From NCBI GenBank assembly GCA_017853315.1, contig JAFMJW010000002.1, positions 8,818 to 72,817 of the forward strand: a stretch of 64,000 nt of DNA, read 5' to 3'. Positions within the stretch are counted from its first letter, which is position 1. Every line of letters begins with the position of its first letter. Made by a program: the position numbers and the translations under genes. Of the stretch, positions 1 to 63,894 are shown piece after piece. Below the pieces are notes generated by a model that saw only the letters and a program-made list of their open reading frames with translations, was not told where the DNA came from and ran no database searches. This DNA is from Alphaproteobacteria bacterium (lineage in GTDB: Bacteria; Desulfobacterota; Binatia; UBA12015).

Positions 1-53
1 TCGCACTCGATCGCGCCGTGAACGCGGGACGCGAGGAAGGGAAGCGGGCATGA
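1..53 (+). CDS. 3' end of an upstream gene cut by the window edge; by position possibly recB
   Basis: Open frame ...ALDRAVNAGREEGKRA* stops at TGA 51-53 and overlaps the recD ATG (50-52) as ATGA. Identity is inferred only from the usual recC-recB-recD order. Confidence 0.3.
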   Translation, partial: ALDRAVNAGREEGKRA

Positions 54-6917: not shown

Positions 6918-6939
6918 CGCTCTCCCGAGCAACTGACAC

Positions 6940-47581: not shown

Positions 47582-47616
47582 GCGCCTCGCGGGCGCGCGC
47601 CGGGGCCGGGGCCGCG

Positions 47617-47654
47617 GCGCGGCCCGGCAACGGTGTTCCGCCCCCGGGCCGCGC
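47617..47654. terminator. Strong GC hairpin between convergent genes (candidate bidirectional terminator)
   Basis: A perfect 11-bp stem, GCGCGGCCCGG (47617-47627) with CCGGGCCGCGC (47644-47654), encloses a 16-nt loop. A nested 7-bp hairpin lies at 47609-47625. No T tract. Confidence 0.35.
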
Positions 47655-47663
47655 GCTCTCCGC

Positions 47664-48569: not shown

Positions 48570-48673
48570 GCTTGCTCTCCTCCTGGGGTTCCGTCGTGCG
48601 GGTCGAGCGGCGCGGGAGGCGCCGCCGGCGGGACCATAGGACGCAGGGTCGGCCGCGACAAACGACGGCGCGG

Positions 48674-49069
48674 TCAGCGCCGCGGCCGGCGAACCGGCTC
48701 CCGCGGCGCGATCTCCGCGATCCGGGCGATCGCGACACGGCAGACGACGAGGTAGGGAAGGGCGATCGCCGGCACGCCGAAGCCCACCCGGCAGGCGTCC
48801 TCGCCGGTCGACTCGACCCGGTGGCCCGTCGCCGGAACTCCGGCGACCGACCACGACCACGACCGGCCGGGCTCGAAGCTCGTCACCTCGAACGGGAGGT
48901 CGAAGCCGAGCGCGGTCGTGACCAGCCCGCGAGTACCGTCGCCGAAGCGCTCCGAGAGGAGGCGTGCCGAACGCACCGAGGGGCCCCACTCGGGCCAGCG
49001 CTCGACGTCGACGAGGAGGTTCCACGCGACCTCGGCGGGAGCCGCGACGTCACCCCACGTCCACAGCAC
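48674..49069 (-). CDS. SRPBCC (START/polyketide cyclase-like) family protein
   Basis: 131 aa with the typical N-terminus VAAPAEVAWNLLVDVERWPEWGPSV. Confidence 0.65.
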   Translation of the reverse strand: MLWTWGDVAAPAEVAWNLLVDVERWPEWGPSVRSARLLSERFGDGTRGLVTTALGFDLPFEVTSFEPGRSWSWSVAGVPATGHRVESTGEDACRVGFGVPAIALPYLVVCRVAIARIAEIAPREPVRRPRR

Positions 49070-49168
49070 GCGCGCCTCTCGACCGGGGCGGCCGGATCGC
49101 CCGGCCGAAGCCGCGCGTCGACCCGGCGACGAAACGAAGAGGCGGCCCCGTCCGGGACCCGCGCCTCG

Positions 49169-49672
49169 TCAGGGAACGCGACGGATCGTCTCGCAGCTCG
49201 TGCTCGCGGTGTCCTCGAGCGTCTGGCCGCCGTTGCAGCGGTCGTCGCTGCCGCCACCGCCGAAGATTTCGTCGGCGCCGAAGCTGCCCTTCAGGACGTC
49301 GTTCTTCGGCCCGCCCTCGAGGTGGTCGTCGCCCTTGCCGCCGCGGATCAGGTCGGGGCCGTCGCCGCCGAACAGCCGATCGTGGCCGTTGCCGCCGAGG
49401 ATCGTGTCGGCGCCCTTGCCGCCGCAGATCGTGTCGTCCCCGCCGCCGCCCTTGATGTAGTCGTCGCCCTCCGCGCCGTAGATCACGTCCGCCTTGCTGG
49501 TGCCGACGATCGTGTCGTCGCCGGGGGTCCCGCAGATCGTCGGCTGCTTGCCGTCGCAGGTGGGCTCCGTGCCGTTGCACGGGTAGGGAGGCAGGTCGGC
49601 ACGGGCCGCCGTCGCGCAGGCGAGCAGGCCGGCTGCGGCGAGCAGAGCCGCGCGGGTGGGCCAGGGCTTCAT
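49169..49672 (-). CDS. Small secreted protein with hemolysin-type (RTX-like) calcium-binding repeats
   Basis: ATG 49672 is preceded by GGAGAA. The signal peptide is MKPWPTRAALLAAAGLLACATAARA. GGxGxD nonapeptide runs are present (GAEGDDYIKGGGGDDTICGGKGADTILGGNGHDRLFGGDGPDLIRGGKGDDHLEGG). Cys-containing caps flank the repeats. 167 aa. Confidence 0.75.
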   Translation of the reverse strand: MKPWPTRAALLAAAGLLACATAARADLPPYPCNGTEPTCDGKQPTICGTPGDDTIVGTSKADVIYGAEGDDYIKGGGGDDTICGGKGADTILGGNGHDRLFGGDGPDLIRGGKGDDHLEGGPKNDVLKGSFGADEIFGGGGSDDRCNGGQTLEDTASTSCETIRRVP

Positions 49673-49803
49673 GTCGTTCTCCATGTTCGACGGGACGGCG
49701 GCCCGAGGCTCCCGGGCCGGGTGTCGACCCCGCCGAGGAAACCATCCTCGCCAGCGGCGGTCAACCCGTGAAACTCGCCCGAAAAGCAGGCAGGCGCGGA
49801 GAA

Positions 49804-50610
49804 TCACTGCCAGCGCGTCATGAGCAGGGCCATTCCGACGCCGACCGCCACGATCGCCCGGCGCACCCAGCTCCGGGGCACGGCCCGGACCAGCGAGGCC
49901 CCGCCGAAGCCGCCGACCACCTGTCCGACGGTCATGATCGCGGCGACCGGCCAGTCGACCGCCCCGCCGCGGACGAACCAGGCGGCCGCGATGCCGTTGA
50001 TCACGGTCGCGAGACAGGTCCGCACCGCCATGCGCCGGTGGAGATCGCGCAGTCCCAGGATCCCGAGCGACGCGAGCATCATGATCCCGATGCCCGCCCC
50101 GAAGTAGCCGCCGTAGAGCGCGATCGGAAGCTGGAGAGCCGCGGCCCGCCACGGCGACCGCGGCGGCGGCTCGTCGACGCCGAGCGGCGACGGCGGCCGT
50201 GCTCCGTCGGAGAGGTGCACGAGGATCTCCTGGGCGGCGAACACTCCCGTCGCGAACAGGATGAGCGCGGGCACGAGCCGCACGAAGACCTTCTCCGGCG
50301 TCGCGAGCAGCAGGAACGCTCCGGCGAGGCCGCCCGCGAGCGACGGCAGCAGGAGCGCGCGCAACCAGGTGCGCGAGCGATCGATCTCGCCGCGGAACGG
50401 GACCATCGCCGCGATCGAGCCGGGAAAGATCGAGATCGTGTTGGTGCCGTTCGCGACGATCGGAGGCAGCCCCGCCCACACGAGCGCCGGAAAGGTGAGC
50501 AGCGAGCCGCCGCCGGCGAGCGCGTTGGTCGCACCGGCAGCGACGGCGACGAGAAAGAGCGCGACCGCGCGCGCCGCGGTCACGGACGCGACCCTTCCGA
50601 GGCGAGGCAC
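49804..50610 (-). CDS. TauE/SafE-family anion (sulfite-type) exporter
   Basis: 268 aa with 7-8 TM helices. Family segments: ATNALAGGGSLLTFPAL and GGYFGAGIGIMMLA. The exact start is uncertain. Confidence 0.8.
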   Translation of the reverse strand: MPRLGRVASVTAARAVALFLVAVAAGATNALAGGGSLLTFPALVWAGLPPIVANGTNTISIFPGSIAAMVPFRGEIDRSRTWLRALLLPSLAGGLAGAFLLLATPEKVFVRLVPALILFATGVFAAQEILVHLSDGARPPSPLGVDEPPPRSPWRAAALQLPIALYGGYFGAGIGIMMLASLGILGLRDLHRRMAVRTCLATVINGIAAAWFVRGGAVDWPVAAIMTVGQVVGGFGGASLVRAVPRSWVRRAIVAVGVGMALLMTRWQ

Positions 50611-50656
50611 GGCCGCGCCGCCGGCGGCAGGGCGCGAGGATCGTCTTCGCGAGCGC

Positions 50657-51121
50657 TCAGCGCACGAGCTCCCATACCGGCAGCACGACGCGCTCGGTGA
50701 GCGGCTTGAACACGACGCGCACGCGCTTGCCGATCGCGACCTCGTCGGGCGTGCAGCCGACCATGTAGCCGACCAGCCGCGGCCCCTCGTCGAGCTCGAC
50801 CACCACCATCGCGAGCGGCAGCAGATCCTTGAACGCAGGCAGGAAGGGCTCGCGGCCGAGCACCCAGGTGTAGATCGTGCCGGTGCCCTTCGCGTCGACC
50901 CACTCGAGGCGGCCCCCGCCCTTCCAGGTCGCGGGCTTGGGCGGCCAGTGGAAGGCGCCGGTCTCGCGGTCGCGCTGGACGCGGAGACGCCGCTCGCGGC
51001 AGCCGTCCCAGAAGGGACGGGTGACCGGGTGGTCGACGTCGGGCAGCGGGTAGTCGGGGTGCAGGTCGCCGATCGGCCGATCGGGCCCGCCGCCGCTCTC
51101 GGGACGCCTCACCTCGCTCAT
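50657..51121 (-). CDS. DUF35 OB-fold protein (thiolase partner)
   Basis: 154 aa. The family start is PFWDGCRERRLRVQRD. The rubredoxin-like Cys residues are largely replaced. The OB-fold segment is GTIYTWVLG...MVVVELDEGPRLVGYMV. It lies 8 nt downstream of the thiolase-like gene. Confidence 0.8.
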   Translation of the reverse strand: MSEVRRPESGGGPDRPIGDLHPDYPLPDVDHPVTRPFWDGCRERRLRVQRDRETGAFHWPPKPATWKGGGRLEWVDAKGTGTIYTWVLGREPFLPAFKDLLPLAMVVVELDEGPRLVGYMVGCTPDEVAIGKRVRVVFKPLTERVVLPVWELVR

Positions 51122-51128
51122 CGCGCCC

Positions 51129-52319
51129 TCACTCCCCGCGCACGATCATCGCGCTGGTCGCGACGCCCGACGCCCCGGTGACGAGCACGTTGCGGCAGCC
51201 GGGGACCTGCGCGGTCGAGTCGCCCCGCACCTGGCGCACGGCCTCGAGGATCAGGTTGAAGCCGTGCACGTAGGCCTCCGAGAGACCGCCGCCCGAGGTG
51301 AGCGTCGGCAGCTCGCCGCCGAGCTCGAGGCGTCCGCCCTCGGTGAAGGGCCCGCCCTCGCCGGGCTTGCAGAAGCCGTAGTCCTCGAGGCCCATGATCA
51401 CGAGCGGCGTGAACGCGTCGTAGATCTGTGCGCAGTCGATGTCGGCGGGCTTCATCTCGGCGCGCGACCAGAGCTGCTGCGCACACGGCACCGCGGTCGT
51501 CTGCAGGTCGGGCGTGTTGTAGTTCGCGAGGTGCACCGGGTTCGGGCCCGACGCCTGCGCGACCGAGTGCACGAGCACGGGCTTGCGGCGCAGGTCGCGC
51601 GCGCGCTCGACCGAGGTGACGACGCAGGCGAGCGCGCCGTCGGTCTCGAGGCAGCAGTCGTAGAGCGTGAGCGGGTCGCTCACCGCGCGGCCGGCGAGGT
51701 AGGTCGCCATGTCGAGCGGACGGCCGTGCATCATCGCGCCCGGGTTGCGATTCGCATGCTTGCGCGCGGCGATCGCGACGTTGCCGAGCTGCTCGCGCGT
51801 GGTCCCGAAGCGGTGCATGTGGCGCTGCGCCCACATGCCGATCACGTCGACGGGCCGGATGAGCCCCCACGGCACGTGCAGCGCCTTGTCGTCGGCGACG
51901 AGCTCGCGCTCCTGCGCCCAGGGGCGCGACGCCTTCGATCCGCGGTTGCGGGCGCGGTGGCAGACCACCACCTCGGCGAGGCCGGTCGCGATCGCGGCGG
52001 CCGCGTGCATGATCGTCGCGCAGGAGGCGCCGCCGCCGTAGGAGATCTTGTCCCACCAGCGCAGGTTCCGGACGCCGAGACCGCGGGCGATCGTCACCTC
52101 GTGGGTGTGCTCCATCTCGAACATCGACATGCCGTCGACGTCCTCGGTCTCGAGCCCGGCGTCCTCGACCGCGAGCCGGATCGCGTCGATCGCGGTGTCG
52201 GAGATCGGACGCCCGATGTCCTTCGCAAACGGCAGCTGCCCGATGCCGACGATCGCGACGCGGTCGCGGATGCGACGGAAGAGGTCGCGGTCGATCGCGT
52301 CGGCGGCCATGCGACGCAC
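51129..52319 (-). CDS. Thiolase-like (Ltp/SCP-x-related) protein
   Basis: 396 aa. Family segments: VAIVGIGQLPFAKD and GGGASCATIMHAAAAIATG. It has the gene pairing with DUF35 typical of this family. The start may instead be the Met three codons downstream (52310). Confidence 0.85.
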   Translation of the reverse strand: MRRMAADAIDRDLFRRIRDRVAIVGIGQLPFAKDIGRPISDTAIDAIRLAVEDAGLETEDVDGMSMFEMEHTHEVTIARGLGVRNLRWWDKISYGGGASCATIMHAAAAIATGLAEVVVCHRARNRGSKASRPWAQERELVADDKALHVPWGLIRPVDVIGMWAQRHMHRFGTTREQLGNVAIAARKHANRNPGAMMHGRPLDMATYLAGRAVSDPLTLYDCCLETDGALACVVTSVERARDLRRKPVLVHSVAQASGPNPVHLANYNTPDLQTTAVPCAQQLWSRAEMKPADIDCAQIYDAFTPLVIMGLEDYGFCKPGEGGPFTEGGRLELGGELPTLTSGGGLSEAYVHGFNLILEAVRQVRGDSTAQVPGCRNVLVTGASGVATSAMIVRGE

Positions 52320-52532
52320 CTAGCGGATCGGGGTCCGGGGCGGTAGGCGCCGGCGGCCCGGAGCCGGGGGACGGCGACCGTGACGTCTTCGAGGGTCTCG
52401 GTCCGACCCGGCGAGGGGCACCGCCGCCCGGTCTCGACCTCCGGGACCTCGAAGGGGCCGGAGACGGGGCGGTGCCAGCGCGGAGCGATTCGGGCATTGT
52501 ACCCGGGGGGAGCCGGCGGTATTCCTGCCAAA

Positions 52533-55500
52533 GTGCGAACGAGGCCCGGCCTTCTCGCTTCCGTCGCCACGGCCTTCGCCGTCGCGATCCTCGCATCGGC
52601 GACCGCCCGCGCGGACGGGATCGACGACCTGAACGCGAGCTGGGTGGGCCGCGCGTTGCGCGCCCAGCGGCGCATCGACCTCGACACCCCGATCAGCGAC
52701 ACGAGTCTCGTCGGCGCGCACAACAGCTTCAACTCGGAGGCCTACGCGTCGGGCATCCGCTACCTCGACCCCAACCAGCGTCACTCGACCTTCGACCAGC
52801 TCCGCATGGGAGCCCGCGCGATCGAGTTCGACGTCCACTGGACGACGAAGAGGGACGGCCTGTCGTTCTCGAACCGACTCCTTCTCTGCCACGGCACGGC
52901 GAGCCACCTCGGCTGCGGACTCGACGACCGGACCTTCGAGGAGGGCCTCGACGAGATCGTCGCCTGGCTCGGGACCGCCGACTCGATCGGGCAGGTCCTG
53001 ATCCTGCACGTCGAGGACCACGTGGAGGGCCGGCACGGGGAGGCCTTCGCACGCGTCGCCGAGCGCCTGGGCGACCGCATCTGGGCAAGCGGCGGCTGCT
53101 CCGACATCCCCGCGAACCTGACGAAGTCCCAGGTGCTCGCCGCCGGCAAGCAGGTCATCGTCTGGAACGAGGGCGGCTGCAGCGGCGACGGCAACTGGAA
53201 CTCGATGGTGTTCACCGGCCTCGGTTCGATCACCCGGGTGTGGGAGGACTCGACCACGCTCGGCGGCGGCTCGGTCCCGCCGATCGGTTCCGGCGAGATC
53301 GCGAGTCTCCACGCATCCGGGATCAACCTGGTCGACCTCGACCAGCTCGATCCGGGCGACGGCCGGTGGGCGGCGGCCGTGTGGAGTTGGGCGGCGGGCG
53401 AGCCCAACGACCTCGGCGGCGAGGACTGTGCCGCCCAGCAGGCGGACGGCCGCTGGAACGACGTCGACTGCCGGCTCGAAAAGGCGTTCGCCTGCGAGAA
53501 CCTCGCGACCGGAGGCTGGGCGGTCACCTCGGAACAGGGCTCCTTCGGCCGTGGCGCGCTCGCCTGCCGGCGGCTCGGCCCCGACTTCCGCTTCGCCGTA
53601 CCCACCAACGCACAGGACAACCAGCTGCTCGCCGCAGCGCGCGCGGCGGCCGGCCGCTCCTCGGCGTGGCTCGCGCACGACGACCGGGACGTCGAGGGGG
53701 ACTGGCGGATCCGCAGCGGCGACGACCTCTTCTGGGACCGGGGCGGGCTGGTCCTCGATGCGGGCGCGTCCGTGCGAGGCGCGAGCCGCATGCTGCGCAT
53801 GGAGCCGAACTGCAACCTCGTGCTCTACTCGCTCGACGGAGACGAGGTCGGCCGCGGGCTTTGGACGAGCGGCACGGCGAACCTCGGCGTGAACTGCCGC
53901 GCGGAGTTCGGATCCGACGGCATCCTCGCGGTCCGCGACGGTGCGGGCCGCGCGCTCTGGAACTCGGGTGCGGGCGGAACCGAACTCGTCCTGCAGTCCG
54001 ACGGCAACCTGGTCCTCTACGACGACGGCCGGGTCGCCCGCTGGTCGACGTTCACGAACGCGGGCGACGAGGCGACCTTCGAGGCAGGCCGGTTCACGCT
54101 CACCCCGGGGCAACGCGTCGGGACCCGGAGTCTCGAACTCGCGCTGACCGTCGACGGCAACCTCGTCGTCTCCAGCGTCGACAACGGTTTCGTCGGCGGC
54201 GTTCTCTGGCGCAGCGGCACGACGGGCCCGGGGGGGCGCGCGGAGTTCCAGTCCGACGGCAACCTCGTCGTCTACGACGGCGCGGGCCGGGCGCTCTGGG
54301 CCGCGGGGACGTCCGGGACCGCGAACGCGACGCTTCGACTGCAATCGGACGGCAACGTCGCGATCTACAACGGCGCCGGAGAGCCCCTCTGGTCGACGAT
54401 GACGAACACGCCCGCGCAGGCGGTCCTTCGCGCCGGGCAGTTCGCCCTCGACCGAGGGGACTGGGTCCAGACCCGCAGCCGGAAGCTCGAACTGACCGCG
54501 ACCTGCGACCTCGTGCTGTCGAGCGTCGACAACGCGGTGGTCGGCGGCGCGCTCTGGCGCAGCGGCACCTCGGCCTCGAGCTGCCGCGCCGACTTCCAGG
54601 CCGACGGGAACTTCGTCCTCTACGACGGCGAGGGGCACGCGCTCTGGGCCGCGGGAACCTCCGGCACGGCCAACGCCGAGCTCCGCATCCAGCCGGACGG
54701 CAACGTCGTCGTCTACAACGGCGCGGGCGAGCCGCTCTGGACGACGCAGACCCGCCTGCCGACCGAGTCCTCGTTCCTCGCGGGACGGTTCGCGCTCACG
54801 CCCGGGCAGTTCGTCCTGCAGGCGAATCGTTTCCTCGAGCTGCGCGACGACTGCCAGCTGGTCCTCCACTCGCTCGTGAACGGCGCGCGCGGGCTCCGGG
54901 TGTGGGACTCGAACACCGCGGGAGCCGGCACGAACTGCCGGCTCGACTTCCAGTCCGACGGCAACCTCGTCCTCTACGACGGGTCCGGACGATCGCTCTG
55001 GGCGGCCGGCACCTCGGGGACGACGGGCGCGGTGTTCCGCATCCAGTCCGACGGGAACATGGTGATCTACAACGGCGCGGGCGAGCCCCTGTGGACGAGC
55101 CAGACCCCCGGGAACTTCTCGGAGGTCGCCGTGTGCGGGGATGCGACGTGCAACGGGTCCGAGGCCTGCGGCTCCTGCGCATCCGATTGCGGTGCGTGCC
55201 CGCCGTCCTGCGACTGCGGCGACGGCGTGGTCGAACCGTCGTGCGGCGAGCAGTGCGACGACGCAGCCGCGCCCGGCGGCTGCTGCTCCGCCGACTGCCG
55301 GATCGAGCCGGCCGGGACCGCGTGCAGGGCCGCGGCCGGCGACTGCGACGTCGCGGAAGCCTGCGACGGGACCTCGGCCACCTGCCCGCAGGACCGCGTG
55401 GCGGGCGCGGGGTTCCCGTGTCGGCCGGCGGACGGTGCCTGCGACCTCGTGGAGAGCTGCGACGGAGCGTCGACCGCCTGCCCGCAGGACCGGGTCGCGG

Positions 55501-56327
55501 GCGCCGGGGTTGCCTGTCGGCCCGCGCAGGACGCCTGCGACGCGGCCGAGAACTGCGACGGCTCGGGCAAGGGCTGCCCGGCGGACGCTCCCGCGCCCGA
55601 CGGCACGCCGTGCGACGACGGGCAGGCCTGCACGATCCTCGACGCGTGCTCCGGCGGATCCTGCGGCGGCGACCCGATCACCTGCGGCGACGGAAGCCTG
55701 CAGGCCGCGTGCGGGGAGCAGTGCGACGACGGCGGACGCGAGCCCGGGGACGGCTGCGACGCGTCCTGCCGGGTCGAGATCTGCCCGGCGAGCCCGCGCA
55801 CGGATTGCGTCGAGGCCGCGCGGGTCAAGTTCCAGTTCCTCGAGCGGAGTGCCGGCCGGGAGCAGATGAAGGTCGAGTGGAAGGGCTTCTCGGACGACAC
55901 GACGGCCGCCGGGTTCGGCGATCCCGTCTCGGGCGCGAACTCGGTGGCCCTCTGCCTCTACGGCGATGCCGGCGAGCTCGTGCAGCGACTGGAAGTCGAC
56001 CGCGGCGGCGAGCGTTGCGCCGGGGCTCCGTGCTGGCAGGGACTCGGCTCGAGCGGCTTCCGGTACAAGGACGGCAGCGCGAGCGCGTCGGGCGTGCAGC
56101 AGCTCGACTTCGTCGCGGGCGACGCCGGTCGCGGCAAGGCCTCCGCCAAGGGCCGCAACGATGCCGGCAAGGGGATGACGTCGCTGCCGACCGGCGTCGC
56201 CTTCCGGCTCTACGGCGAGTCCCACCCGACCCTGCAGCTCGCGACCGAGCACGGGTTCTGCCTGTCCGCGAAGGTCACGACGATCCTGCTGGCCGACAAG
56301 AAGCAGTACAAGGCCGAGCGCCGCTGA
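52533..56327 (+). CDS. Secreted multidomain protein: PLC-like phosphodiesterase, C-type lectin module, 4 bulb-type (B-) lectin domains, Cys-rich/disintegrin-like repeats, C-terminal beta domain
   Basis: The preferred start is GTG 52533 (xRTRPGLLASVATAFAVAILASATARA/DG); TTG 52497 and GTG 52380 are alternatives. Domain evidence: LVGAHNSFN; WAAGEPNDLGGEDCAAQQADGRWNDVDC..FACE; seven Q-x-D-x-N-x-V/A-x-Y motifs; CGDGVVEPSCGEQCDD; 3 CRxxxGxCDxxExCDGxSxxCPxD units. Confidence 0.8.
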   Translation: MRTRPGLLASVATAFAVAILASATARADGIDDLNASWVGRALRAQRRIDLDTPISDTSLVGAHNSFNSEAYASGIRYLDPNQRHSTFDQLRMGARAIEFDVHWTTKRDGLSFSNRLLLCHGTASHLGCGLDDRTFEEGLDEIVAWLGTADSIGQVLILHVEDHVEGRHGEAFARVAERLGDRIWASGGCSDIPANLTKSQVLAAGKQVIVWNEGGCSGDGNWNSMVFTGLGSITRVWEDSTTLGGGSVPPIGSGEIASLHASGINLVDLDQLDPGDGRWAAAVWSWAAGEPNDLGGEDCAAQQADGRWNDVDCRLEKAFACENLATGGWAVTSEQGSFGRGALACRRLGPDFRFAVPTNAQDNQLLAAARAAAGRSSAWLAHDDRDVEGDWRIRSGDDLFWDRGGLVLDAGASVRGASRMLRMEPNCNLVLYSLDGDEVGRGLWTSGTANLGVNCRAEFGSDGILAVRDGAGRALWNSGAGGTELVLQSDGNLVLYDDGRVARWSTFTNAGDEATFEAGRFTLTPGQRVGTRSLELALTVDGNLVVSSVDNGFVGGVLWRSGTTGPGGRAEFQSDGNLVVYDGAGRALWAAGTSGTANATLRLQSDGNVAIYNGAGEPLWSTMTNTPAQAVLRAGQFALDRGDWVQTRSRKLELTATCDLVLSSVDNAVVGGALWRSGTSASSCRADFQADGNFVLYDGEGHALWAAGTSGTANAELRIQPDGNVVVYNGAGEPLWTTQTRLPTESSFLAGRFALTPGQFVLQANRFLELRDDCQLVLHSLVNGARGLRVWDSNTAGAGTNCRLDFQSDGNLVLYDGSGRSLWAAGTSGTTGAVFRIQSDGNMVIYNGAGEPLWTSQTPGNFSEVAVCGDATCNGSEACGSCASDCGACPPSCDCGDGVVEPSCGEQCDDAAAPGGCCSADCRIEPAGTACRAAAGDCDVAEACDGTSATCPQDRVAGAGFPCRPADGACDLVESCDGASTACPQDRVAGAGVACRPAQDACDAAENCDGSGKGCPADAPAPDGTPCDDGQACTILDACSGGSCGGDPITCGDGSLQAACGEQCDDGGREPGDGCDASCRVEICPASPRTDCVEAARVKFQFLERSAGREQMKVEWKGFSDDTTAAGFGDPVSGANSVALCLYGDAGELVQRLEVDRGGERCAGAPCWQGLGSSGFRYKDGSASASGVQQLDFVAGDAGRGKASAKGRNDAGKGMTSLPTGVAFRLYGESHPTLQLATEHGFCLSAKVTTILLADKKQYKAERR
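53721..55105 (+). repeat. Four tandem ~115-aa bulb-type lectin modules (protein-level repeat inside the CDS)
   Basis: Each module has three subrepeats. Examples: ..NCNLVLYS / ..SDGILAVRD / LQSDGNLVLYD; LTVDGNLVVSS / FQSDGNLVVYD / LQSDGNVAIYN; LTATCDLVLSS / FQADGNFVLYD / IQPDGNVVVYN; LRDDCQLVLHS / FQSDGNLVLYD / IQSDGNMVIYN. Confidence 0.8.
55323..55610 (+). repeat. 3 x 96-bp in-frame tandem repeat (32-aa disintegrin-like Cys unit)
   Basis: The three units are CRAAAGDCDVAEACDGTSATCPQDRVAGAGFP, CRPADGACDLVESCDGASTACPQDRVAGAGVA and CRPAQDACDAAENCDGSGKGCPADAPAPDGTP. Confidence 0.8.
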
Positions 56328-56412: not shown

Positions 56413-59220
56413 ATGGTCGAGGCGCGCCTGGAGAAGACGTCGGGCAACGGTTCGGTCCCGGGCCGGGTCGTCCGCGCGGTCGTGGCGGCGGCGCTGGCAC
56501 TCGCGATGGCGGTCGCGCCGCGCGAGGCTCGGGCCGCAGTCGTGTTCCAGGACTCGACCGGCACCGTCACGAACCAGAACAACACGATCGGCGGCAGCTC
56601 CTACAGCTCCGACTGGTTCGTGCCGTCGACCCCCGCGCTCGGCTTCATGCTGATGGAGCACGGCTTCTCGCGCGGCTGCGGCAACATCCGGGACACCGGG
56701 CTCGCGATCATGCGGCAGGGGCTCGTCGTCCTCTGCATCAACGCGAGCATGCAGGGTGGCAACCCGTCCTTCGGCGTCACGGTCGGCGACGCGATCGCGG
56801 ACGGAGCCCTCGTCCCGCCGGCCGGAACGGTCGTCCCGGCCGCGACGATCGTCGGCGGCCACTCGGCGGGAGGTCACTTCGCGACCGAGGTCGGCAAGCG
56901 CCTCGTCCAGCGCGGCTTCGCGACGCTGAAGGGCGCGATCCTGTTCGACCCGGTCTCGGCGAGCGGCTTCTCCGAGAACGTCGTCGCGATCTCCGCGGGC
57001 GCGACGCGCCCCGTCCTCTCGGTGACCGCGAACTCGTCGGCTTGCAATTCGTCCAACAACAGCGCGCCGGCGCTCGCCGGTCTCCCGAACTCGTTCGTCG
57101 GCCTGAAGCTCACCAACGGCAGCCTTCACACCGACGTCGAGGGCACCAACTCCGACTTCCTCGGGACGCTCGCCTGCGGCACCCCGCAGGCCGCGAACAC
57201 GACCGCGCTGCGGACCCTCGCCGCGGCCTGGGCCGGCGACATCGTGCGCGGGACGCGGACGAGCGCCTACTACGAGTACGGCACCTACACGAGCGGCCTG
57301 ATCTCCCAGAACCGCGCGACCCCGATCAAGGCACTGCCGGATTGCGGCAACGGCAGCCTGGACGCGGGCGAGGCCTGCGACCTCGGTGCCGCGAGCAACG
57401 GTGCCGACGGCGCGTGCTGCGCGATCGATTGCAGCTTCGCAGCCGCGGCGACGGTCTGCCGCGCTGCGGCGGGAGCCTGCGACGTCGCCGAGGCCTGCAC
57501 CGGTGCGTCCGACGCCTGTCCGGCCGACGGGTTCGCCGATGCGGGCACGACCTGCCGCATCGCGAACGGCGCGTGCGACGTCGCCGAGGCCTGCAACGGA
57601 ACGTCCGCCGCCTGCCCCACGGACGGGTTCGTCGCCGCGGGTACCACCTGCCGCACCGCGAACGGCGACTGCGACGCCGCCGAGGCGTGCAACGGAACGT
57701 CCGCCGCCTGCCCCGCGGACGTGTTCCTCGCCGCGGGCACGACCTGCCGGGTCGCGAGCGACGCATGCGACGCACCGGAGGCCTGTACCGGGACCTCCGC
57801 GGGTTGTCCGGTCGACCAGTTCGTCGCCGCGGGCACGTCGTGCCGGGCGGCGACCGCCGCCTGCGACGTCGCCGAGGCCTGCACCGGCTCTTCCGCCGCC
57901 TGCCCCGCCGACGGCGTCGCAGGCGCAGGCACCGCGTGCCGTGCCGCGAGCGGCACCTGCGACGCGGCCGAGATCTGCGACGGCTCGGGCAAGGACTGCC
58001 CCGCAAACGGCTTCGCGGCGGCGGGCACCGTCTGCCGCGCGGCGACCGGTCCCTGCGACGTCGCCGAGGTGTGCTCGGGTGCGAGCAACACCTGCCCCGC
58101 CGACGGACTCGCGACCTCCGGGACCACCTGTCGCGCGGCCGCCGGCCCCTGCGACCTCGCCGAGGCCTGCACCGGCTCGTCGGCGGCCTGCCCGGGCGAC
58201 GTCCGACAGCCGGCCGGCGTGACCTGTCGTCCGGCGTCCGACGCCTGCGACATCGCCGAGTCCTGCACCGGCTCCTCGGCCGCGTGCCCCGCCGACGTCT
58301 ACCGTCCGGCGGGAACGCCCTGCCGTCCGGCCGCGGGCGTCTGCGACGCGATCGACGCGTGCACCGGCTCGTCCGCGGCCTGCCCCGCCGACGGAAAGAA
58401 GACCTCGGTCTGCCGCACGGCGAGCGACGTCTGCGACGCACCCGAGTCCTGCGACGGGGTCGCGGACGACTGCCCGACCGACCTGGTCGCGAGCGCGGGC
58501 GCGGTGTGCCGCGAGGTCGGCGACGCCTGCGACGTCGCCGAGTCCTGCGACGGGTCGTCGAAGGCCTGCCCGACCGACACCGGACTCCCCGATGCCGACC
58601 AGGACGGCACCTGCGACGCCGAGGACACGTGCCCCGCTTCGGCCGATCCGCTCCAGGCCGACGCCGACGGCGACGGGCGAGGCGACGCCTGCGACGAGTG
58701 CACCGTGATGCCCGGCGGGGCGATCGCCAAGACGGCCCTGAAACTGTCGGGCTTCGGCACGCCCGCGGGCGACGACAAGGTCACGTTCAAGGGCGAGGCG
58801 TTCATGCCGACGAACCCGGCGCTCGATCCCGCGACCCACGGCGTCCGGGTCCTCGTGTACGACGAGACGGCGCACCTGTGGGGCTCGGCGGCCATCGCCG
58901 ACCTGTCGGTGCCGTCGGGAGCATGGTCCGCAGCGACCGGCTCGGGCTGGGTCGCCTCGACCTCGGGCTGGACCTGGAAGGCGCCGCGCCTGCCGACCGG
59001 CAAGACCGGCGTCGCGAAGGTGAGCCTGCGGCGGATCGCGGCCGGACGCTGGTCGTTCTCGATCACGACCAAGGACTCGAGCTTCGACCTCCCCGCGACC
59101 GGCGGCCCGCTCGTCGCGGCGGTCGTGTTCGCGCCCCCGGGTGCGGCCGTCGGCTCGTGCGCGGAGATCCGTCCCGCCTGCAAGTGGGACACGCTGCTGC
59201 GCTCCGTGTCCTGCCGCTGA
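56413..59220 (+). CDS. Secreted multidomain protein: alpha/beta hydrolase (lipase/cutinase/chlorophyllase-like), 12 disintegrin-like Cys repeats, TSP3-like Ca-binding repeats, C-terminal beta domain
   Basis: 935 aa. The signal peptide is [23 protein letters not shown]. The nucleophile elbow is [25 protein letters not shown] segment precedes the 12 units of CRxxxxxCDxAExCxGxSxxCPxD. The TSP3-like stretch is [15 protein letters not shown]...[14 protein letters not shown]. Confidence 0.8.
57457..58602 (+). repeat. 12 x ~96-bp in-frame tandem repeat (32-aa disintegrin-like Cys unit; unit 10 is 30 aa)
   Basis: The units begin at TGC 57457 and recur every 96 bp. Examples are [32 protein letters not shown] and [32 protein letters not shown]. 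The last unit ([24 protein letters not shown]) begins at 58507. Confidence 0.85.
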
Positions 59221-59268: not shown

Positions 59269-60039
59269 GTGCCGTCCGGGATTCTCGACCGCTTCCGGCT
59301 CGACGGCCGGACGGCGCTCGTCACGGGCGCGAGCCGCAACATCGGCGCCGCGATCGCGCGCGCGATGGCCGAGGCGGGCGCGCGCGTGGTCGTGAACGCG
59401 CGCGGCGCCGACGCGCTCGGGGCGTTCGCGGAGCGCCTGCGACGCGACACCGGCGCGGACGTGATCGCCGTGCCCGGGGACCTGGGCGACGCGGCCGACG
59501 TCGATCGCGTCGCCCGCGTCGTTCTCGATCGGGTCGGCGGGGCCGACGTCCTGGTGAACAACGCGACCTCGATCGGACACGCGCGTCCGGCGACCTCGCT
59601 CGACGCGACGCCCGCGGACCACGCGCTCGCGATGCAGGTGAACCTGCAGGCCCCGCTCGCGTTCGTGCGCGCGTTCGCCCCGGCGATGCGCGCGCGCGGC
59701 GGCGGCTCGGTGGTGAACGTGCTCAGCACCGCCGGGTTCGACGTCGTGCCGCCGATGCTCGCCTACGCCTGCGCGAAGCAGGCGCTGTGGACCGCGACCC
59801 GCTTCCTCGCCCGCGAGCTCGCGCCCGCGATCCGCGTGAACGCGGTCTGCCCGGGGACGGTGAACGAGGGCGGCGAGCTCAAGGTGCCGACCTGGGAGAG
59901 GCTGCTCCCGCTGAACGCGATCCCGCGCGTGGGGCTCCCCGAAGAGGTGGCCGGCGCGGTCCTCTTCCTCGCCTCCGAGGCTTCCAGCTACACGACCGGG
60001 CAGGTCGTGTTCTGCGACGGCGGGCGGGTCTCGACGTGA
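59269..60039 (+). CDS. Short-chain dehydrogenase/reductase
   Basis: 256 aa. Motifs: ALVTGASRNIGAAIA, NNAT and YACAKQA (YxxxK). Confidence 0.85.
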   Translation: MPSGILDRFRLDGRTALVTGASRNIGAAIARAMAEAGARVVVNARGADALGAFAERLRRDTGADVIAVPGDLGDAADVDRVARVVLDRVGGADVLVNNATSIGHARPATSLDATPADHALAMQVNLQAPLAFVRAFAPAMRARGGGSVVNVLSTAGFDVVPPMLAYACAKQALWTATRFLARELAPAIRVNAVCPGTVNEGGELKVPTWERLLPLNAIPRVGLPEEVAGAVLFLASEASSYTTGQVVFCDGGRVST

Positions 60040-60055
60040 CGGCCGGGCGCGCGCG

Positions 60056-61297
60056 ATGAGCGCCCCGGGAGGACGCCCCGCGCACATCCTCGCGGTGAGC
60101 GAGGCGCCGATCCCGTCGGCGGTGCTCGGCGTGCACGCGCCCTTCGAGCACCTCGGTCGCACGACCGGGCGCTGCGAGCTCCGCACCGCATCCTCGATCG
60201 ACCTCGACCCCGCCGACGTCGCCTGGGCCGACTCGATCGTGCTCGTGCGCGGCGCGTCGCCGGCCGAGCGCAGGCTGCTCGACGAGGCCCGTCGGCTCGG
60301 CCGGCGCGTCGCCACCTACATGGACGACGACCTGGAACGCGTGCCCGGGGAGGCGCGCAGCGGCTACTTCTTCACCTCGCCGACCGTGCGCGCGAACGTC
60401 GCCGCGATCGTGCGCGGTTCCGACCTGCTGCTCGTCACGAACGAGCGGCTCGGCGACGAACTGTCGCGACGGCACGGGCGCCTGGCGACCCTGCTCCGCC
60501 AGCCGCGACCGGCGCGCATGGCTCGGGCAGGCATCGCGGGCGCGCACGGGCACGCAGCCCGCGGCGCGACCGACATCGCGACCGCGGTCGGGGCGACGGG
60601 TGGACACGACGCACCGGTGCGGATCGGCTTCCTCGGCAGCGTCGACCACGCGGGATTCGTCGAGCGCCTGCTCGGGGGGCCGATCTCGCGGGTCGCGGCC
60701 GAGCGCGGCGACGCGGTCGAGTGGACGTTCTGCGGCGCGATCCCCGCCTTCGCCCGCTCGCTCGGCGCGCGCTGCGAGCCCTTCGACCCCGACTTCGGCT
60801 CGTGGTGCCGCACCGCGGCCTCGCTGCGGCTCGACGTGGCACTCGCGCCGCTCGAGGACTCGGCGTTCCACGCCTGCAAGTACTTCAACAAGTACCTCGA
60901 GTACGGCTCGCTCGGGGCGGCGGGGATCTACTCGGAGGTGCCGCCGTTCGTCGACGCCGTGCGCGACGGCGGGACCGGGCTGCTCGTGCCGAACCGACCC
61001 GGCGACTGGCTCGCGGCGATCGACTCGCTGGTCGACGACGCCGGACTGCGCCGGCGCATCGCCGCCGCTGCCGCGGCCGACGTCGAGGCGCGCTTCTCGG
61101 AGCGGGCGCTCGAGGCCTCGTGGATCGAGGGGCTCGCCCCGCTGCTCGACCACCGCGCCCGCCCGGTCGAGCCGCACGACGTGCGCCTGCCGCGCGGCCG
61201 CGCACGATGGGCGCTCGACCGGCTCGCGGTCTACGGTCCCCTGCGCTTCGCCGAGAGGCTGGCGGGGCGGCTCACGGGCCGGCTGCGCCCGGGATGA
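60056..61297 (+). CDS. Glycosyltransferase-like protein (GT-B, GT4-like C-terminal half)
   Basis: 413 aa. LAPLEDSAFHACKYFNKYLEYGSLGAAGIYSEVPPFVDAVRDGGTGLLV resembles the GT-B C-terminal nucleotide-sugar-binding region. The N-terminal half is not diagnostic. Confidence 0.5.
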   Translation: MSAPGGRPAHILAVSEAPIPSAVLGVHAPFEHLGRTTGRCELRTASSIDLDPADVAWADSIVLVRGASPAERRLLDEARRLGRRVATYMDDDLERVPGEARSGYFFTSPTVRANVAAIVRGSDLLLVTNERLGDELSRRHGRLATLLRQPRPARMARAGIAGAHGHAARGATDIATAVGATGGHDAPVRIGFLGSVDHAGFVERLLGGPISRVAAERGDAVEWTFCGAIPAFARSLGARCEPFDPDFGSWCRTAASLRLDVALAPLEDSAFHACKYFNKYLEYGSLGAAGIYSEVPPFVDAVRDGGTGLLVPNRPGDWLAAIDSLVDDAGLRRRIAAAAAADVEARFSERALEASWIEGLAPLLDHRARPVEPHDVRLPRGRARWALDRLAVYGPLRFAERLAGRLTGRLRPG

Positions 61298-61313
61298 GAA
61301 GGAGGACTTCGCC

Positions 61314-62126
61314 GTGTCGAACTTCGATCGCTGCGTCCTGACGGGCGCCGGAAGCGGCCTCGGCCGCGCGCTCGCGCTGCGGCTCGCGCGCCCGGGCGCG
61401 GTGCTGCTGCTCGCCGACCTCGATCGCGCGTCCTGCGAGGAGACCGCGACGCTCGCCGAACGGCGGGGAGCCGCGGCGCACGCGCGGGTCGTCGACGTCT
61501 CGGATGCCGGGGCGGTCGAAGCGCTCGCGGCCGAGGCCGACGCCCTGCTCGACCGGCGCATCGACCTCGTCGTGAACAACGCGGGCGTCGCGGTGGCCGG
61601 GGCGGTCGGCGAGACGCCGATCGAGGACTGGCGCTGGATCGTCGGTGCGAACCTCTTCGGCGTCGTCCACGGCTGCCACGTCTTCGTGCCGCGTCTCGTC
61701 GCCCGCGGTCGCGGCGCGGTCCTGAACGTCGCCTCGATGGCCGGGCTCGTGAGCGTGCCGACGATGAGCGCCTACAACGCGACCAAGGCCGCGGTCGTGG
61801 CGCTCAGCGAAACGCTCGCGGCCGAGGTGGGCTCGAAGGGCGTGAAGGTCACCGTGCTGTGCCCGTCGTTCTTCGACACCCACCTGCTCGACCAGGGCCG
61901 CTTCGCGGCCCCGGACCTCGAGCGTGCCGCCCGCCGGGCCTTCGCGCGCGCGCGGATGACCGCCGACGACGTGGCGGCCGTCGCGCTCCGCGACGTCGCC
62001 GCAGGTCGCCTGCACAGCGTGCCGATGCTCGACGGACGCCTCGCCTGGATCGCGAAGCGCGTGGCGCCCGGCCTGTTCACGCGCATGCTCGCGAGCCCGC
62101 GCGTGCAGCAGCTCGCGCGGGGTTGA
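61314..62126 (+). CDS. Short-chain dehydrogenase/reductase
   Basis: GTG 61314 is preceded by GAAGGAGGA and lies in frame within ORF 60600..62126. Motifs: CVLTGAGSGLGRALA, NNAGV and YNATKAA. 270 aa. Confidence 0.85.
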   Translation: MSNFDRCVLTGAGSGLGRALALRLARPGAVLLLADLDRASCEETATLAERRGAAAHARVVDVSDAGAVEALAAEADALLDRRIDLVVNNAGVAVAGAVGETPIEDWRWIVGANLFGVVHGCHVFVPRLVARGRGAVLNVASMAGLVSVPTMSAYNATKAAVVALSETLAAEVGSKGVKVTVLCPSFFDTHLLDQGRFAAPDLERAARRAFARARMTADDVAAVALRDVAAGRLHSVPMLDGRLAWIAKRVAPGLFTRMLASPRVQQLARG

Positions 62127-62243
62127 TCCCGCGCGGCGGTCGCGATCGCCGCGACCCGGGCGGACGCCCGCGGACCGGAGGACGGGCCGCGCGGGTGCGG
62201 CCCTCCCGAGCCGGGCCTCTCGGCGCCCGGCCGGGACGCAGCC

Positions 62244-62969
62244 TCAGCCGGCGAACTCCGAGTAGGCCGCGATCACGTCGTCGACCGGCCCGTCCATCTT
62301 GAGCCGCCCCTGGTCGAGCCAGAGAGCGCGGCGACACATCTGCCGCACGGTGTCCATCGAGTGGCTCACCAGGACGAGGATCGAGGCGCGGTCGACCATG
62401 TCGGCGAGCCGTCGCTGCGCCTTCTCCTGGAAGCGCATGTCGCCCGAGGCGATCACCTCGTCGAGCAGCAGCACGTCGGGCGAGATCGCGGTCGAGACCG
62501 CGAAGCCGAGCCGGACGAACATGCCCATCGAGTAGGTCTTCACGGGCCGGTCGAGCGCGTCGCCGAGCTCGGTGAAGTCCGCGATGTCGCGCATGCGGTC
62601 GCGGATCTCGGCCGGCGAGAGTCCGAGCAGGAGACCGCGCGTGCGGATGTTGTCCCAGCCGGTCGCCTCCATCTCGAAGCCGGTCGCGAGCTCGAACAGG
62701 CAGGCGACGTCGCCCTCGACGACGACCGACCCCTGCGTGGGAGCGTAGATGCCGCACATGACCTTGAGCAGCGTCGTCTTGCCGGCGCCGTTCAGCCCGA
62801 TGATGCCGACCCGGTCGCCGGGCGGCACCAGCAGCTCGAGGTCGTGCAGGGCGGTGACCGCGCCCGCCTCGTGGACCGCAGCGCCGCCCCGCAGGCGATT
62901 CAGCCGCTCGCGGATGCTGCGCGCGCGCGGCGGCGGGAAGGTGAGGGAGACGTCGCGCAGCTCGATCAC
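62244..62969 (-). CDS. ABC transporter ATP-binding protein, polysaccharide/teichoic-acid export type (Wzt/TagH/KpsT-like)
   Basis: 241 aa. Walker A is GLNGAGKTTLL, the signature is YSMGMFVRLGFA, Walker B is VLLLDEV and the H-loop is VSHS. Confidence 0.9.
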   Translation of the reverse strand: MIELRDVSLTFPPPRARSIRERLNRLRGGAAVHEAGAVTALHDLELLVPPGDRVGIIGLNGAGKTTLLKVMCGIYAPTQGSVVVEGDVACLFELATGFEMEATGWDNIRTRGLLLGLSPAEIRDRMRDIADFTELGDALDRPVKTYSMGMFVRLGFAVSTAISPDVLLLDEVIASGDMRFQEKAQRRLADMVDRASILVLVSHSMDTVRQMCRRALWLDQGRLKMDGPVDDVIAAYSEFAG

Positions 62970-63024
62970 GGCCGCGCCTCCCGGGCGACCGCGCGCGCGG
63001 CGCGGGAAACGTGCGTCGCCGGCG

Positions 63025-63894
63025 TCACAGCCAGAACACCAGGCGGCGGCGCACGAAGCGCAGGCCGACGAACGCGAGCCCCAGCAGGAGCACGAGCGAG
63101 AGGGCGACCGCGACGTAGTGCTCGACCGGCGGGCGATTCCCGAACAGAAGCGGCACCTGGACGATGATGAGCAGGTGGTAGAGCGGGTTCCAGGTGAGCA
63201 GCGGCTGGAGCCCGTGGGCGACGAGCAGGCTCGACGGGAACATGATCGGCGTCGCGTAGAAGAGCGCCTGCACGGCGACCGTCTGGATGTAGCTCAGGTC
63301 GCGCATCCAGGTGTTCGCGATCCCCGAGATCGTGGCGAGGGCGACTCCGAAGAAGAACCAGGCCGCGAGCCCCGGCAGCACCCACGCCCAGCCGGGCGTC
63401 GGGCGTCCGCCGAACAGGACCACCACCAGCACGACCGCGAGGAGACCGAGCAGGAGGGTGACGAACGCCGCCATGACCATCCGCAGCGGGTAGGCGAGCA
63501 GCGGCACCCGGGCGATCTGCTTGATGTAGCCCTCGGCCGCGATGAACGAGATCGCCCCGCCGTCGAGGCAGGCGACGAAGAACGCCCAGAAGGTGAGGTT
63601 CAGGAAGAGGTAGGGCAGGAAGGTCTTCAGCTCGACCTGGAAGAGCTTGCCGAACACGGTTCCGATGATCGCCGCCATGCAGAGCGGCGACAGAATCGCC
63701 CAGAGCATGCCGAGCATGGTCGAGGTGTAGCGGCGAAGCAGGTCGAGCCGCGCGAGCTGCCAGGCGATCGAGAAGGCGTGCAGGTGGGCCTGGCGCTGGC
63801 CGAGGCGCGCGAGCACGCCGCCGCGCGCCGGGCCGGCCGCCCTCCCGGCGGCCGGGGCGACCGGGGCCGCGGTGGTCGCGCCGGGCTCGCTCAC
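63025..63894 (-). CDS. ABC-2 type transporter permease (Wzm/TagG/KpsM-like)
   Basis: Six TM helices. The family start is LARLDLLRRYTSTMLGMLWAILSPL. The proposed GTG start at 63894 overlaps the stop of an upstream ORF as GTGA. The tracked start at 63975 is possible. Confidence 0.8.
   Translation of the reverse strand: MSEPGATTAAPVAPAAGRAAGPARGGVLARLGQRQAHLHAFSIAWQLARLDLLRRYTSTMLGMLWAILSPLCMAAIIGTVFGKLFQVELKTFLPYLFLNLTFWAFFVACLDGGAISFIAAEGYIKQIARVPLLAYPLRMVMAAFVTLLLGLLAVVLVVVLFGGRPTPGWAWVLPGLAAWFFFGVALATISGIANTWMRDLSYIQTVAVQALFYATPIMFPSSLLVAHGLQPLLTWNPLYHLLIIVQVPLLFGNRPPVEHYVAVALSLVLLLGLAFVGLRFVRRRLVFWL

Follow-up and report, generated by a model that had tools for sequence, protein, structure and literature searches.

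A 64,000-nucleotide stretch of DNA (the window; positions 8,818 to 72,817 of contig JAFMJW010000002.1, assembly GCA_017853315.1), from a bacterium that the GTDB lineage places in the Binatia, carries a gene for a 935-residue protein in which a 32-residue unit is repeated 12 times head to tail. Judged by its motifs, this unit is the calcium-binding 'arm' module of the disintegrin-like domain of ADAMs, present here as a serial array. Our overall reading, which we hold to be probable while leaving real room for doubt, is that the protein is an exported modular enzyme and that the array is a rigid Ca2+/disulfide spacer, not an integrin binder.

The disintegrin domain is usually seen as characteristic of snake venoms and of the ADAMs of animals. 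In the full-text literature that we searched, there was no description of bacterial or prokaryotic disintegrin-like repeats, the sole trace being a Pfam count in the Minicystis genome paper. The assignment of such proteins to the Pfam family Disintegrin (PF00200) is not new, as databases already tag them. What appears to be undescribed is the arm module as a tandem rod, the cassette of which that rod is part, and the family to which the C-terminal domain of the cassette belongs.

A complete gene with twelve tandem units

From its N-terminus, the protein reads as a signal peptide, an alpha/beta hydrolase domain, a disintegrin-like head, 12 units, one thrombospondin type-3 (TSP3) repeat and a C-terminal beta-sandwich. 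The features of the gene, each with the evidence for it in brackets, are as follows.

56413..59220, + strand: complete gene, 935 aa plus stop codon, ATG to TGA (open reading frame (ORF) call; P0001 has the same start and length)
56413..56535, + strand: probable Sec signal peptide, aa 1-41 (read from the sequence)
56536..57327, + strand: predicted alpha/beta hydrolase domain, aa 42-305 (homology, invariant residues, profile-to-PDB comparison)
57328..57456, + strand: disintegrin-like 'head', aa 306-348, putative equivalent of the Ds shoulder subdomain, 5 Cys (3k7n alignment, site II match, PF00200)
57457..58602, + strand: array of 12 tandem units, 11 of 32 aa and one of 30 aa (motif scan, PF00200, Tandem Repeats Finder, unit alignment)
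58588..58707, + strand: one thrombospondin type-3-like Ca2+-binding repeat, aa 726-765 (matches to TSP-2, COMP and TSP-1)
58702..59217, + strand: C-terminal all-beta domain of an undescribed family, aa 764-935 (AlphaFold model, profile search)

P0001 is an orthologue that is 95% identical to the window protein. The mature protein contains 64 cysteines. By motif scan, the 12 units lie at aa 349-722 with a spacing of 32 residues, apart from one spacing of 30, and follow the pattern C-R-x5-C-D-x2-[ED]-x-C-x-G-x4-C-P-x-[DN]; the conserved core of unit 12 stops at 58578. At 57456-58394, Tandem Repeats Finder reported 9.8 copies of a 96-bp period, in which 73% of positions matched. The original prediction had placed a head-to-tail array of 12 units with a 96-bp period at 57457-58602, and the motif scan returned these coordinates exactly; the three further units that it had seen in the neighbouring gene were found at 55323-55610. 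The motif CD..[ED].C.G....C..[DN] occurs 12 times in the target ORF and three times in the neighbouring one, is absent elsewhere in the six frames of the window, and did not arise in any of 2,000 residue shuffles of the target protein.

The unit and the head match calcium sites of ADAM disintegrin domains

The kinship with ADAMs and P-III snake-venom metalloproteinases (SVMPs) that had been proposed for the unit from the letters alone was borne out by family, sequence and fold. PF00200 matched the target protein with 247.4 bits in 12 stretches and the neighbouring protein with 37.2 bits in three (cut-off 35.1). Because only the first copy (aa 319-372) covers positions 22-75 of the 75 in the model, units 2-12 are, by this alignment, the C-terminal ~40% of the disintegrin domain, its Da part, and not the whole domain; the best unit of the neighbour spans positions 47-75. 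A phmmer search against PDB sequences aligned aa 297-402 to the D domains of P-III SVMPs and of ADAM22. Its best match, the K-like proteinase 3k7n (E 4e-10), is collinear with the head, unit 1 and unit 2 over ~105 residues, with only two one-residue gaps. As this alignment begins at the CGN..GE.CD segment ahead of unit 1, aa 306-372 can be read as one complete but shortened disintegrin-like domain.

In ADAMs, a buried structural Ca2+ ion is held at site II in the 'shoulder' (Ds), with the consensus XCGN(X)3EXGEXCD, and another at site III in the 'arm' (Da), with the consensus CD(X)2(E/D)XCXG(X)4C(X)2(D/N) (PMC4885070). The arm is rigid, and its site III ion could not be stripped from ADAM22 by EDTA (PMC4885070). 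All 12 units of the target and all three of the neighbour match the site III consensus exactly, an equality that the original prediction had missed. The head segment from aa 311 fits the site II consensus, with Asp in place of the first Glu ligand. Since all units fit site III and the head fits site II, we identify the repeated unit, from these motifs, as the Ca2+-site-III arm (Da) module of ADAMs. The ADAM arm itself would then look like ~1.5 units, as the cysteines of its 'wrist' (Cw) align with C1-C3 of unit 2.

The predicted structure gave a similar picture. An AlphaFold model of the head plus four units (mean predicted local distance difference test (pLDDT) score 93.5, predicted template-modelling (pTM) score 0.70) contains very few secondary-structure elements, with short strands recurring at an exact 32-residue period. 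When this model was compared with the PDB using Foldseek, 50 of the 50 matches listed were ADAM, SVMP/P-III or disintegrin structures, with venom disintegrins among the weaker ones. The best E value was 2e-4 (VAP2), and probabilities were mostly 0.9-1.0. Global TM-scores were low (0.3-0.45), as is to be expected when the query is a rod of five modules and each target has a single copy; 3k7n, which is short and 'I-shaped', gave the highest query TM-score, 0.45.

As had been claimed, the segment forms a serial array here, as opposed to a single copy per domain in animal proteins. Pfam gave no match to a reprolysin (M12B) or ADAM_CR domain in the target at E up to 1, and the Pfam annotation precomputed for the 120 best relatives includes neither. 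Two published repeats proved to be other modules. The 'cysteine-rich repeats' described as markers of horizontal gene transfer in a 2026 preprint have the spacing Cx6-9Cx5-7Cx8-11Cx7-8CC, and the DUF4215/Myxococcus repeats of the diatom trail-protein paper correspond to the head-type motif, not to the unit.

A cassette shared with other secreted proteins

The array is followed by a 46-aa segment that matches TSP-2 (E 2e-18), COMP (9e-17) and TSP-1 (3e-10), and a family profile of the segment matches COMP at E 5e-32. It has two DxDxDG motifs and 4 Cys, and its Asp-rich part spans aa 727-763. The TSP3-like character that had been noted earlier is thus well supported, with the correction that there is a single repeat and not several. 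Pfam TSP_3 (PF02412) was not reported for the target protein at E up to 1; the model is short and a single repeat yields few bits. It is matched by the relatives P0300, P0307 and P0007. Among NCBIfam models, none names proteins with this cassette, and the TSP3 segment gave only a weak, sub-threshold match to Omp28_seleno. An RGD tripeptide lies inside the repeat at aa 756-758 (58678-58686), as in the last type-3 repeat of thrombospondin-1. As this is a variable position of the TSP3 consensus G-x-G-D, at which relatives carry L, I, V, A or R, the RGD is probably incidental.

The C-terminal domain has three invariant cysteines, and the protein ends in C-R. AlphaFold models the domain as an all-beta sandwich of 12 strands (pLDDT 83 overall) with no significant fold match in the PDB (best E 0.012), and there was no sequence match in PDB, Pfam or NCBIfam. 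A word-indexed search with aa 764-935 also returned no match. As it missed even P0001, which is 99% identical over the domain, we took this as a failure of the search and not as evidence, and replaced it with an exhaustive profile search. With an E limit of 1e-3 this yielded 2,100 cluster representatives, and with a limit of 1e-10 it yielded 1,460. In nearly all of the 150 best matches, the end of the domain coincides with the protein C-terminus or lies at most a few residues short of it.

Of the 8,000 candidates that were scored in a search with the whole protein, at least 1,959 were relatives; nearly all of these are named 'hypothetical protein' and are already tagged PF00200 by Pfam. Their hosts are Candidatus Binatia, Myxococcota (Sorangium, Archangium, Polyangiaceae) and 'Deltaproteobacteria' metagenome-assembled genomes (MAGs). 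In 63 of the best 120 relatives, the array is followed by a TSP3 repeat and a C-terminal domain of the window type. By these comparisons, the head, n units, one TSP3 repeat and the novel C-terminal beta-sandwich make up a cassette that is carried by many unrelated secreted enzymes, chiefly those of Candidatus Binatia and Myxococcota. The place of the array in so widespread a cassette had not been recognised in the original prediction. The N-terminal partners are secreted enzymes or binding domains that are unrelated to one another; in the best 120 they include metallophosphoesterase and FG-GAP/ASPIC domains, beta-rich domains without assignment and hydrolases of the window type. Also seen in this position are a GHL15 glycosidase-like domain, propellers of the BNR/sortilin and DUF5122 types, a beta-helix, another alpha/beta hydrolase and an S8 subtilase that has a P-domain.

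The number of units varies widely. The best 120 relatives have 4-23 units per protein (median 14), spaced by 32 or 30 residues; proteins with a C-terminal domain of the window type have 0 to 23, and one truncated ORF has 38. Complete members from the C-terminal-domain profile search have 0 to 13, and one protein (P0279) consists of a signal peptide, head, TSP3 repeat and C-terminal domain with zero units. Among species-representative genomes, it is mostly Binatia MAGs that have the full cassette, and they have it in several paralogues; the unit together with TSP3 alone is also found in Planctomycetota, Acidobacteriota and others.

Array genes tend to occur in tandem. A contig of a Candidatus Binatia MAG (L004, CAYSOF010000003.1) has two back to back, at 1-4419 and 4423-7026; the first ORF, though truncated, contains 38 units, and the second contains 11 as well as the C-terminal cassette. 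Two other relatives (P0075 and P0102) have consecutive locus tags. One relative from a EukProt transcriptome, P0023, combines a legume lectin, a head, ~20 units and a pAdhesive_15 (choice-of-anchor A) domain, and may be a protist gene or bacterial contamination. A choice-of-anchor A-type domain has been reported in the diatom adhesive 'Trailins' as a bacterial acquisition. Five array proteins of Myxococcota (P0087, P0091, P0099, P0107 and P0120) have, in place of the beta-sandwich cassette, Arg-rich tails (...SRRRRA, ...MRRRRA) that look like sorting tags of the MYXO-CTERM/PEP-CTERM type; in the three that were scanned (P0087, P0099 and P0120), no NCBIfam sorting-tag model matched at E up to 1e-3.

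Units are old and change in number as whole modules

When units are compared with one another, their mean identity is 63% in protein and 73% in DNA (DNA range 57-92%). Third codon positions are 65% identical between units, and first and second positions 76-77%. As third positions are less conserved than the other two, this indicates that the units are old copies under selection. The adjacent units 2 and 3 (57553-57744) stand apart, with 92% DNA identity against a mean of ~72% for other pairs, which suggests one recent tandem duplication of a single unit.

The window protein and its orthologues P0001-P0004 have 12, 12, 11, 8 and 9 units, with conserved end domains, and the orthologue indels in the array are exactly 32, 64 or 96 aa. 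Copy number would thus seem to change by occasional in-register recombination and not by rapid slippage, which is unlikely because the units are only ~73% identical in DNA. Of the earlier proposal that slippage or recombination might alter the array, the change in copy number stands, and rapid slippage does not.

The locus as a whole is a mosaic. When the window is compared with a syntenic metagenome contig (L081; 56370-57420 of the window against 3925-5000 for the block and its edges), the upstream gene is ~91% identical, the mature-hydrolase block (~56520-57270) 97-99%, the region from the head onward 72-85% and the downstream gene, a short-chain dehydrogenase/reductase (SDR), 75-88%. On either side, the near-identical block stops at a domain border, suggesting that the enzyme module alone was recently exchanged by recombination.

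The N-terminal domain has features of a serine hydrolase

The first 41 residues comprise basic residues, a hydrophobic stretch and then A-R-A before the likely cleavage site, and the family consensus of stand-alone hydrolase homologues has a comparable N-terminus. Residues 1-307 are 45-55% identical to stand-alone proteins of ~300 aa, a few of which are named 'alpha/beta hydrolase' and most of which have no Pfam match. The GHSAGG motif on which the original prediction of a serine hydrolase was built is present at aa 149-154. Invariant in 28 homologues are HGF at 83-85, G-H-S151-A-G at 149-153, Asp179 and His239. A family profile compared with the PDB matched esterase 6aae (E 1e-6), with the nucleophile elbow aligned to its GDSAGG, as well as monoacylglycerol lipases and a chlorophyllase. 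Pfam Abhydrolase_3 was found at E up to 0.1 in 27 of the 28 family members (best 1.7e-5). The profile match and the invariant residues support the alpha/beta hydrolase fold and a Ser/Asp/His triad; family-IV membership is not shown, and the Pfam cut-off was not reached by the window protein itself.

A proposed model of the array as a calcium/disulfide spacer

We propose that an N-terminal serine esterase/lipase-type hydrolase (Ser151, Asp179, His239) would be joined by a rod to the C-terminal beta-sandwich. The rod would consist of the shortened disintegrin-like head with Ca2+ site II, 12 arm copies and one TSP3 repeat. Each arm copy has the site III ligands and four cysteines; by homology with ADAM and P-III structures, it would be expected to bury one structural Ca2+ and to be linked to its neighbours through disulfides, the likely pairs being C1-C4 inside a unit and C2(n)-C3(n+1) from one unit to the next. 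The outcome would be a stiff, acidic and featureless spacer with about one Ca2+ and two disulfides per unit. The number of units would set its length, changing by whole units in evolution, and the spacer would keep a fixed gap between the N-terminal working domain and the C-terminal domain. The latter would give different exported proteins a common attachment or location, which we consider its most likely role because it is common to many unrelated exported proteins. Export beyond the periplasm, the attachment itself and the substrate of the enzyme are further parts of the model that we infer.

The conservation of the units fits such a structural part. The invariant positions (C, R, C, D, C, G, C, P, plus E and D) are structural residues only: the units conserve four cysteines, an arginine, three acidic Ca2+ ligands, a glycine and a proline, and are A, S, T or G elsewhere. 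Large hydrophobic and aromatic residues make up 3.7% of the array, and Asp and Glu 13%. The loop between C1 and C2 has five residues, mostly A, S, G, N, T or D, and neither an RGD/KGD-type motif nor a long mobile loop was found between the first two cysteines of the units. All four cysteines are retained in 2,006 of 2,043 units of relatives. The head has five cysteines in 57 of 59 proteins and the tail seven in 52 of 59; that both counts are odd points to chained disulfides, as does the bond that the ADAM cysteine equivalent to C2 makes into the next subdomain (PMC4885070). The co-loss of cysteines in degenerate units could not be used in the same way, as ~6 real losses in 2,043 units are too few for statistics.

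Alternative explanations for the array

Misassembly is a known hazard of tandem repeats in metagenome-type sequence of 72% G+C, and an array of this kind might be a collapsed or expanded repeat, or part of a pseudogene. This we regard as extremely improbable. An independent MAG contig (L082, GCA_018970825.1) is collinear with the window over 3,346 nt at 96.9% DNA identity without gaps and also has 12 units, and the longest exact word common to any two units is 29 nt; an assembly artefact in the length of the array is thereby excluded. In addition, the frame is intact, every Cys is retained, and third codon positions are more diverged than the others (65% against 76-77% identity). If the array is genuine, its resemblance to ADAMs might yet be convergent, the unit being a generic Cys-rich repeat of bacteria, akin to TIGR02232/DUF4215, with a Ca2+-binding spacing shared by chance. 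The motif is, after all, short, TIGR02232 is present in the neighbouring gene, DUF4215 co-occurs in relatives, and the global TM-scores of the fold matches are low. Chance would, however, have to produce a collinear alignment of ~105 residues to P-III enzymes with two one-residue gaps, both Ca-site patterns in the correct order and a PF00200 score seven times the cut-off, and no other fold appeared among the 50 matches listed. TIGR02232 itself, searched with its NCBIfam model, had no match in the target protein at E up to 1. We consider convergence very unlikely.

Given an ADAM-type module, the array could still serve some end other than spacing. Venom disintegrins bind integrins, and disintegrins are classic binding modules; the array might thus be a multivalent adhesin, each unit binding a surface, polysaccharide, mineral or host/prey receptor, with repetition raising avidity and not length. 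The position of the P0023 array between a legume lectin and an adhesive domain would suit an adhesin, as would the lectin domains in which the neighbouring gene is rich and the RGD at aa 756. Yet the equivalent of the disintegrin loop is five small residues without a conserved motif, conservation is confined to structural residues, the RGD lies outside the units at the variable TSP3 position described above, and the bacteria concerned live in soil and sediment. Where ADAMs and P-III enzymes have site III, moreover, their disintegrin loop is buried and out of reach of binding partners (PMC4885070). We find the adhesin rather unlikely. The array might instead be mainly a device for Ca2+-driven folding or secretion, or a Ca2+ store, with its length incidental; like RTX repeats, it would stay unfolded until it met Ca2+ and oxidising conditions outside the cytoplasm, giving directional export. 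Each chain has ~13 predicted site II/III Ca2+ sites in addition to the TSP3 Ca2+ motifs and a Sec-type signal peptide, and, with so few predicted secondary-structure elements, its fold should depend on Ca2+ and disulfides. Complete cassette proteins with 0, 1 or 2 units and the same end domains argue that the array is not needed for export of the cassette, and no dedicated secretion system is indicated in the loci. A main role of this kind seems to us distinctly improbable.

The preferred reading, that of an exported enzyme with the array as spacer, has difficulties of its own. Ca2+ binding by the units is predicted from the motif only, and the disulfide register and the straightness of the rod are likewise predictions. 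As many as 32 potential disulfides would have to be carried across the outer membrane. The hydrolase domain scores 18.7-20.8 bits with Abhydrolase_3, below the cut-off of 25 bits. No sortase-like system or known sorting or anchor signal was found by Pfam, by NCBIfam or in the loci, and in 18 loci plus the window there was no conserved partner gene beside cassette genes, except for other array genes and generic SDRs. Two proteins (P0298 and P0355) consist of a signal peptide and the C-terminal domain alone, which fits a free binding protein no less well than an anchor; because the domain occurs in this form, a free binding role for it is equally possible.

The neighbouring gene and the flanks

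Upstream of the array gene lies a second, very large gene that shares part of its modules.

52380..56327, + strand: upstream neighbour gene, 1,315 aa (Pfam, NCBIfam; gene order conserved in L081 and L082)
55215..55610, + strand: head-like segment (aa 946-981) and 3 units (aa 982-1077) of the neighbour (PF00200 37.2 bits, site III in 3 of 3)

The encoded protein comprises, in order, an unassigned N-terminal domain, a weak C-type lectin match, 4-8 B-lectin repeats, the head and 3 units, a TIGR02232 repeat (28.0 bits; cut-off 20.8) and a C-terminal domain of its own. Its B-lectin (monocot mannose-binding) repeats score 246.9 bits against the model for putidacin L1, a lectin-like bacteriocin (cut-off 275), and the protein could be a very large relative of lectin-like bacteriocins or a glycan-binding surface protein. 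The N-terminal ~250 residues, within aa ~76-357 (52605-53450, + strand), had no sequence match in Pfam or PDB; their motifs GAHNSFN and EFDVHW may point to a likeness to PLC-like phosphodiesterase TIM barrels. The original prediction held that the two genes share a shuffled set of modules. This applies to the head and the units; the C-terminal domains of the two adjacent genes are not detectably similar (E 0.22). One relative (P0083) has a C-terminal region that, by eye, looks similar to that of the neighbour.

The flanks (45914-52319 and 59269-63975) are ordinary. They hold an acyl-CoA (AMP-binding) ligase, SDRs and a thiolase-like protein with a ChsH2-type OB/zinc-ribbon partner, of the kind seen in lipid or steroid side-chain metabolism. 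An ABC-2 type exporter pair consists of an ATPase (62244-62969) and a permease (63025-63975), and a 413-aa ORF at 60056-61297 had no Pfam match.

Significance and comparison with known systems

The structural reading, one buried Ca2+ and two disulfides per 32 residues, would apply to a large block of unannotated sequence. The array recurs in at least ~2,000 relatives, which come from uncultured bacteria of soil and sediment and nearly all carry the annotation 'hypothetical'. The cassette and its new C-terminal family tag a set of exported enzymes, and so offer a handle on how extracellular enzymes are organised in little-known bacteria. To protein engineers, the rod may be of use as a compact, stiff spacer of programmable length. 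The relatives also provide many natural variants for tracing the origin of the ADAM D domain. Here we raise, as a minority possibility, a wider idea: that the arm module of animal ADAMs is one copy of an ancient bacterial repeat that builds Ca2+/disulfide rods of adjustable length, and that, with the TSP3 joint and the beta-sandwich, serves Binatia and Myxococcota as a general cassette for displaying or targeting their exported enzymes. The D/Cw 'arm' of ADAMs would then be a ~1.5-unit remnant of such a rod, or its donor. If true, this would allow ideas on where the disintegrin domain came from to be tested and would establish a new class of stalk in bacteria.

In its proposed working, the array has a parallel in periscope proteins and the stalks of fibrillar adhesins, such as those built of SHIRT domains, in which tandem repeats likewise hold a working domain away from the other end and the number of repeats differs by whole units between related strains or species (PMC8201768). 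The repeats there are beta-sandwiches of ~80-100 aa, as against a 32-aa Ca2+/disulfide knot here, and are near-identical in DNA, whereas ours have diverged (mean 73%), so that rapid switching of length is not expected. The hosts of our proteins are also diderm, and no known cell-wall or membrane anchor was found with Pfam or NCBIfam. The Myxococcus cysteine-rich repeat TIGR02232/DUF4215, which accompanies the units in the neighbouring gene as well as in numerous relatives, has a CG[DN]G...GE.CDDG motif that equals the ADAM site II consensus; it thus corresponds to the head (Ds-like) part and not to the repeated unit. The TSP3 repeat shares the motif DxDxDGxxDxxD...DxDxDGxGDxCDxC, with its cysteines, with the type-3 repeats of thrombospondins and COMP and with bacterial TSP3-containing OmpA-family proteins (5wtl). 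In thrombospondins and COMP, a run of ~seven repeats is wrapped round a lectin-like domain; here, a single repeat would form the joint between array and C-terminal domain.

Within the disintegrin family itself, the units have PF00200 in common with the venom disintegrins trimestatin, echistatin and rhodostomin, which are RGD/KGD integrin antagonists. Those proteins have lost the structural Ca2+ sites and have a long, mobile integrin-binding loop (PMC4885070), whereas the units retain the Ca2+ ligands and have a five-residue loop without RGD. Closest are the ADAM and P-III D domains, with which the window protein shares a site II head (CGN...GE.CD) followed by a site III arm (CR-x5-CD-x2-E-x-C-x-G-x4-C-x2-D), as well as cysteine spacing, Pfam family and predicted fold. 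K-like proteinase shares, in addition, a head that lacks a segment of ~17 residues at the Ds/Da junction, and differs in having 7 Cys in that head as against 5. Unlike ADAMs and P-III enzymes, the window protein is bacterial and is without a reprolysin (M12B) protease and an ADAM cysteine-rich (Ch/HVR) domain, and where they have one copy of the arm, it has 12, and its relatives 0 to at least 38.

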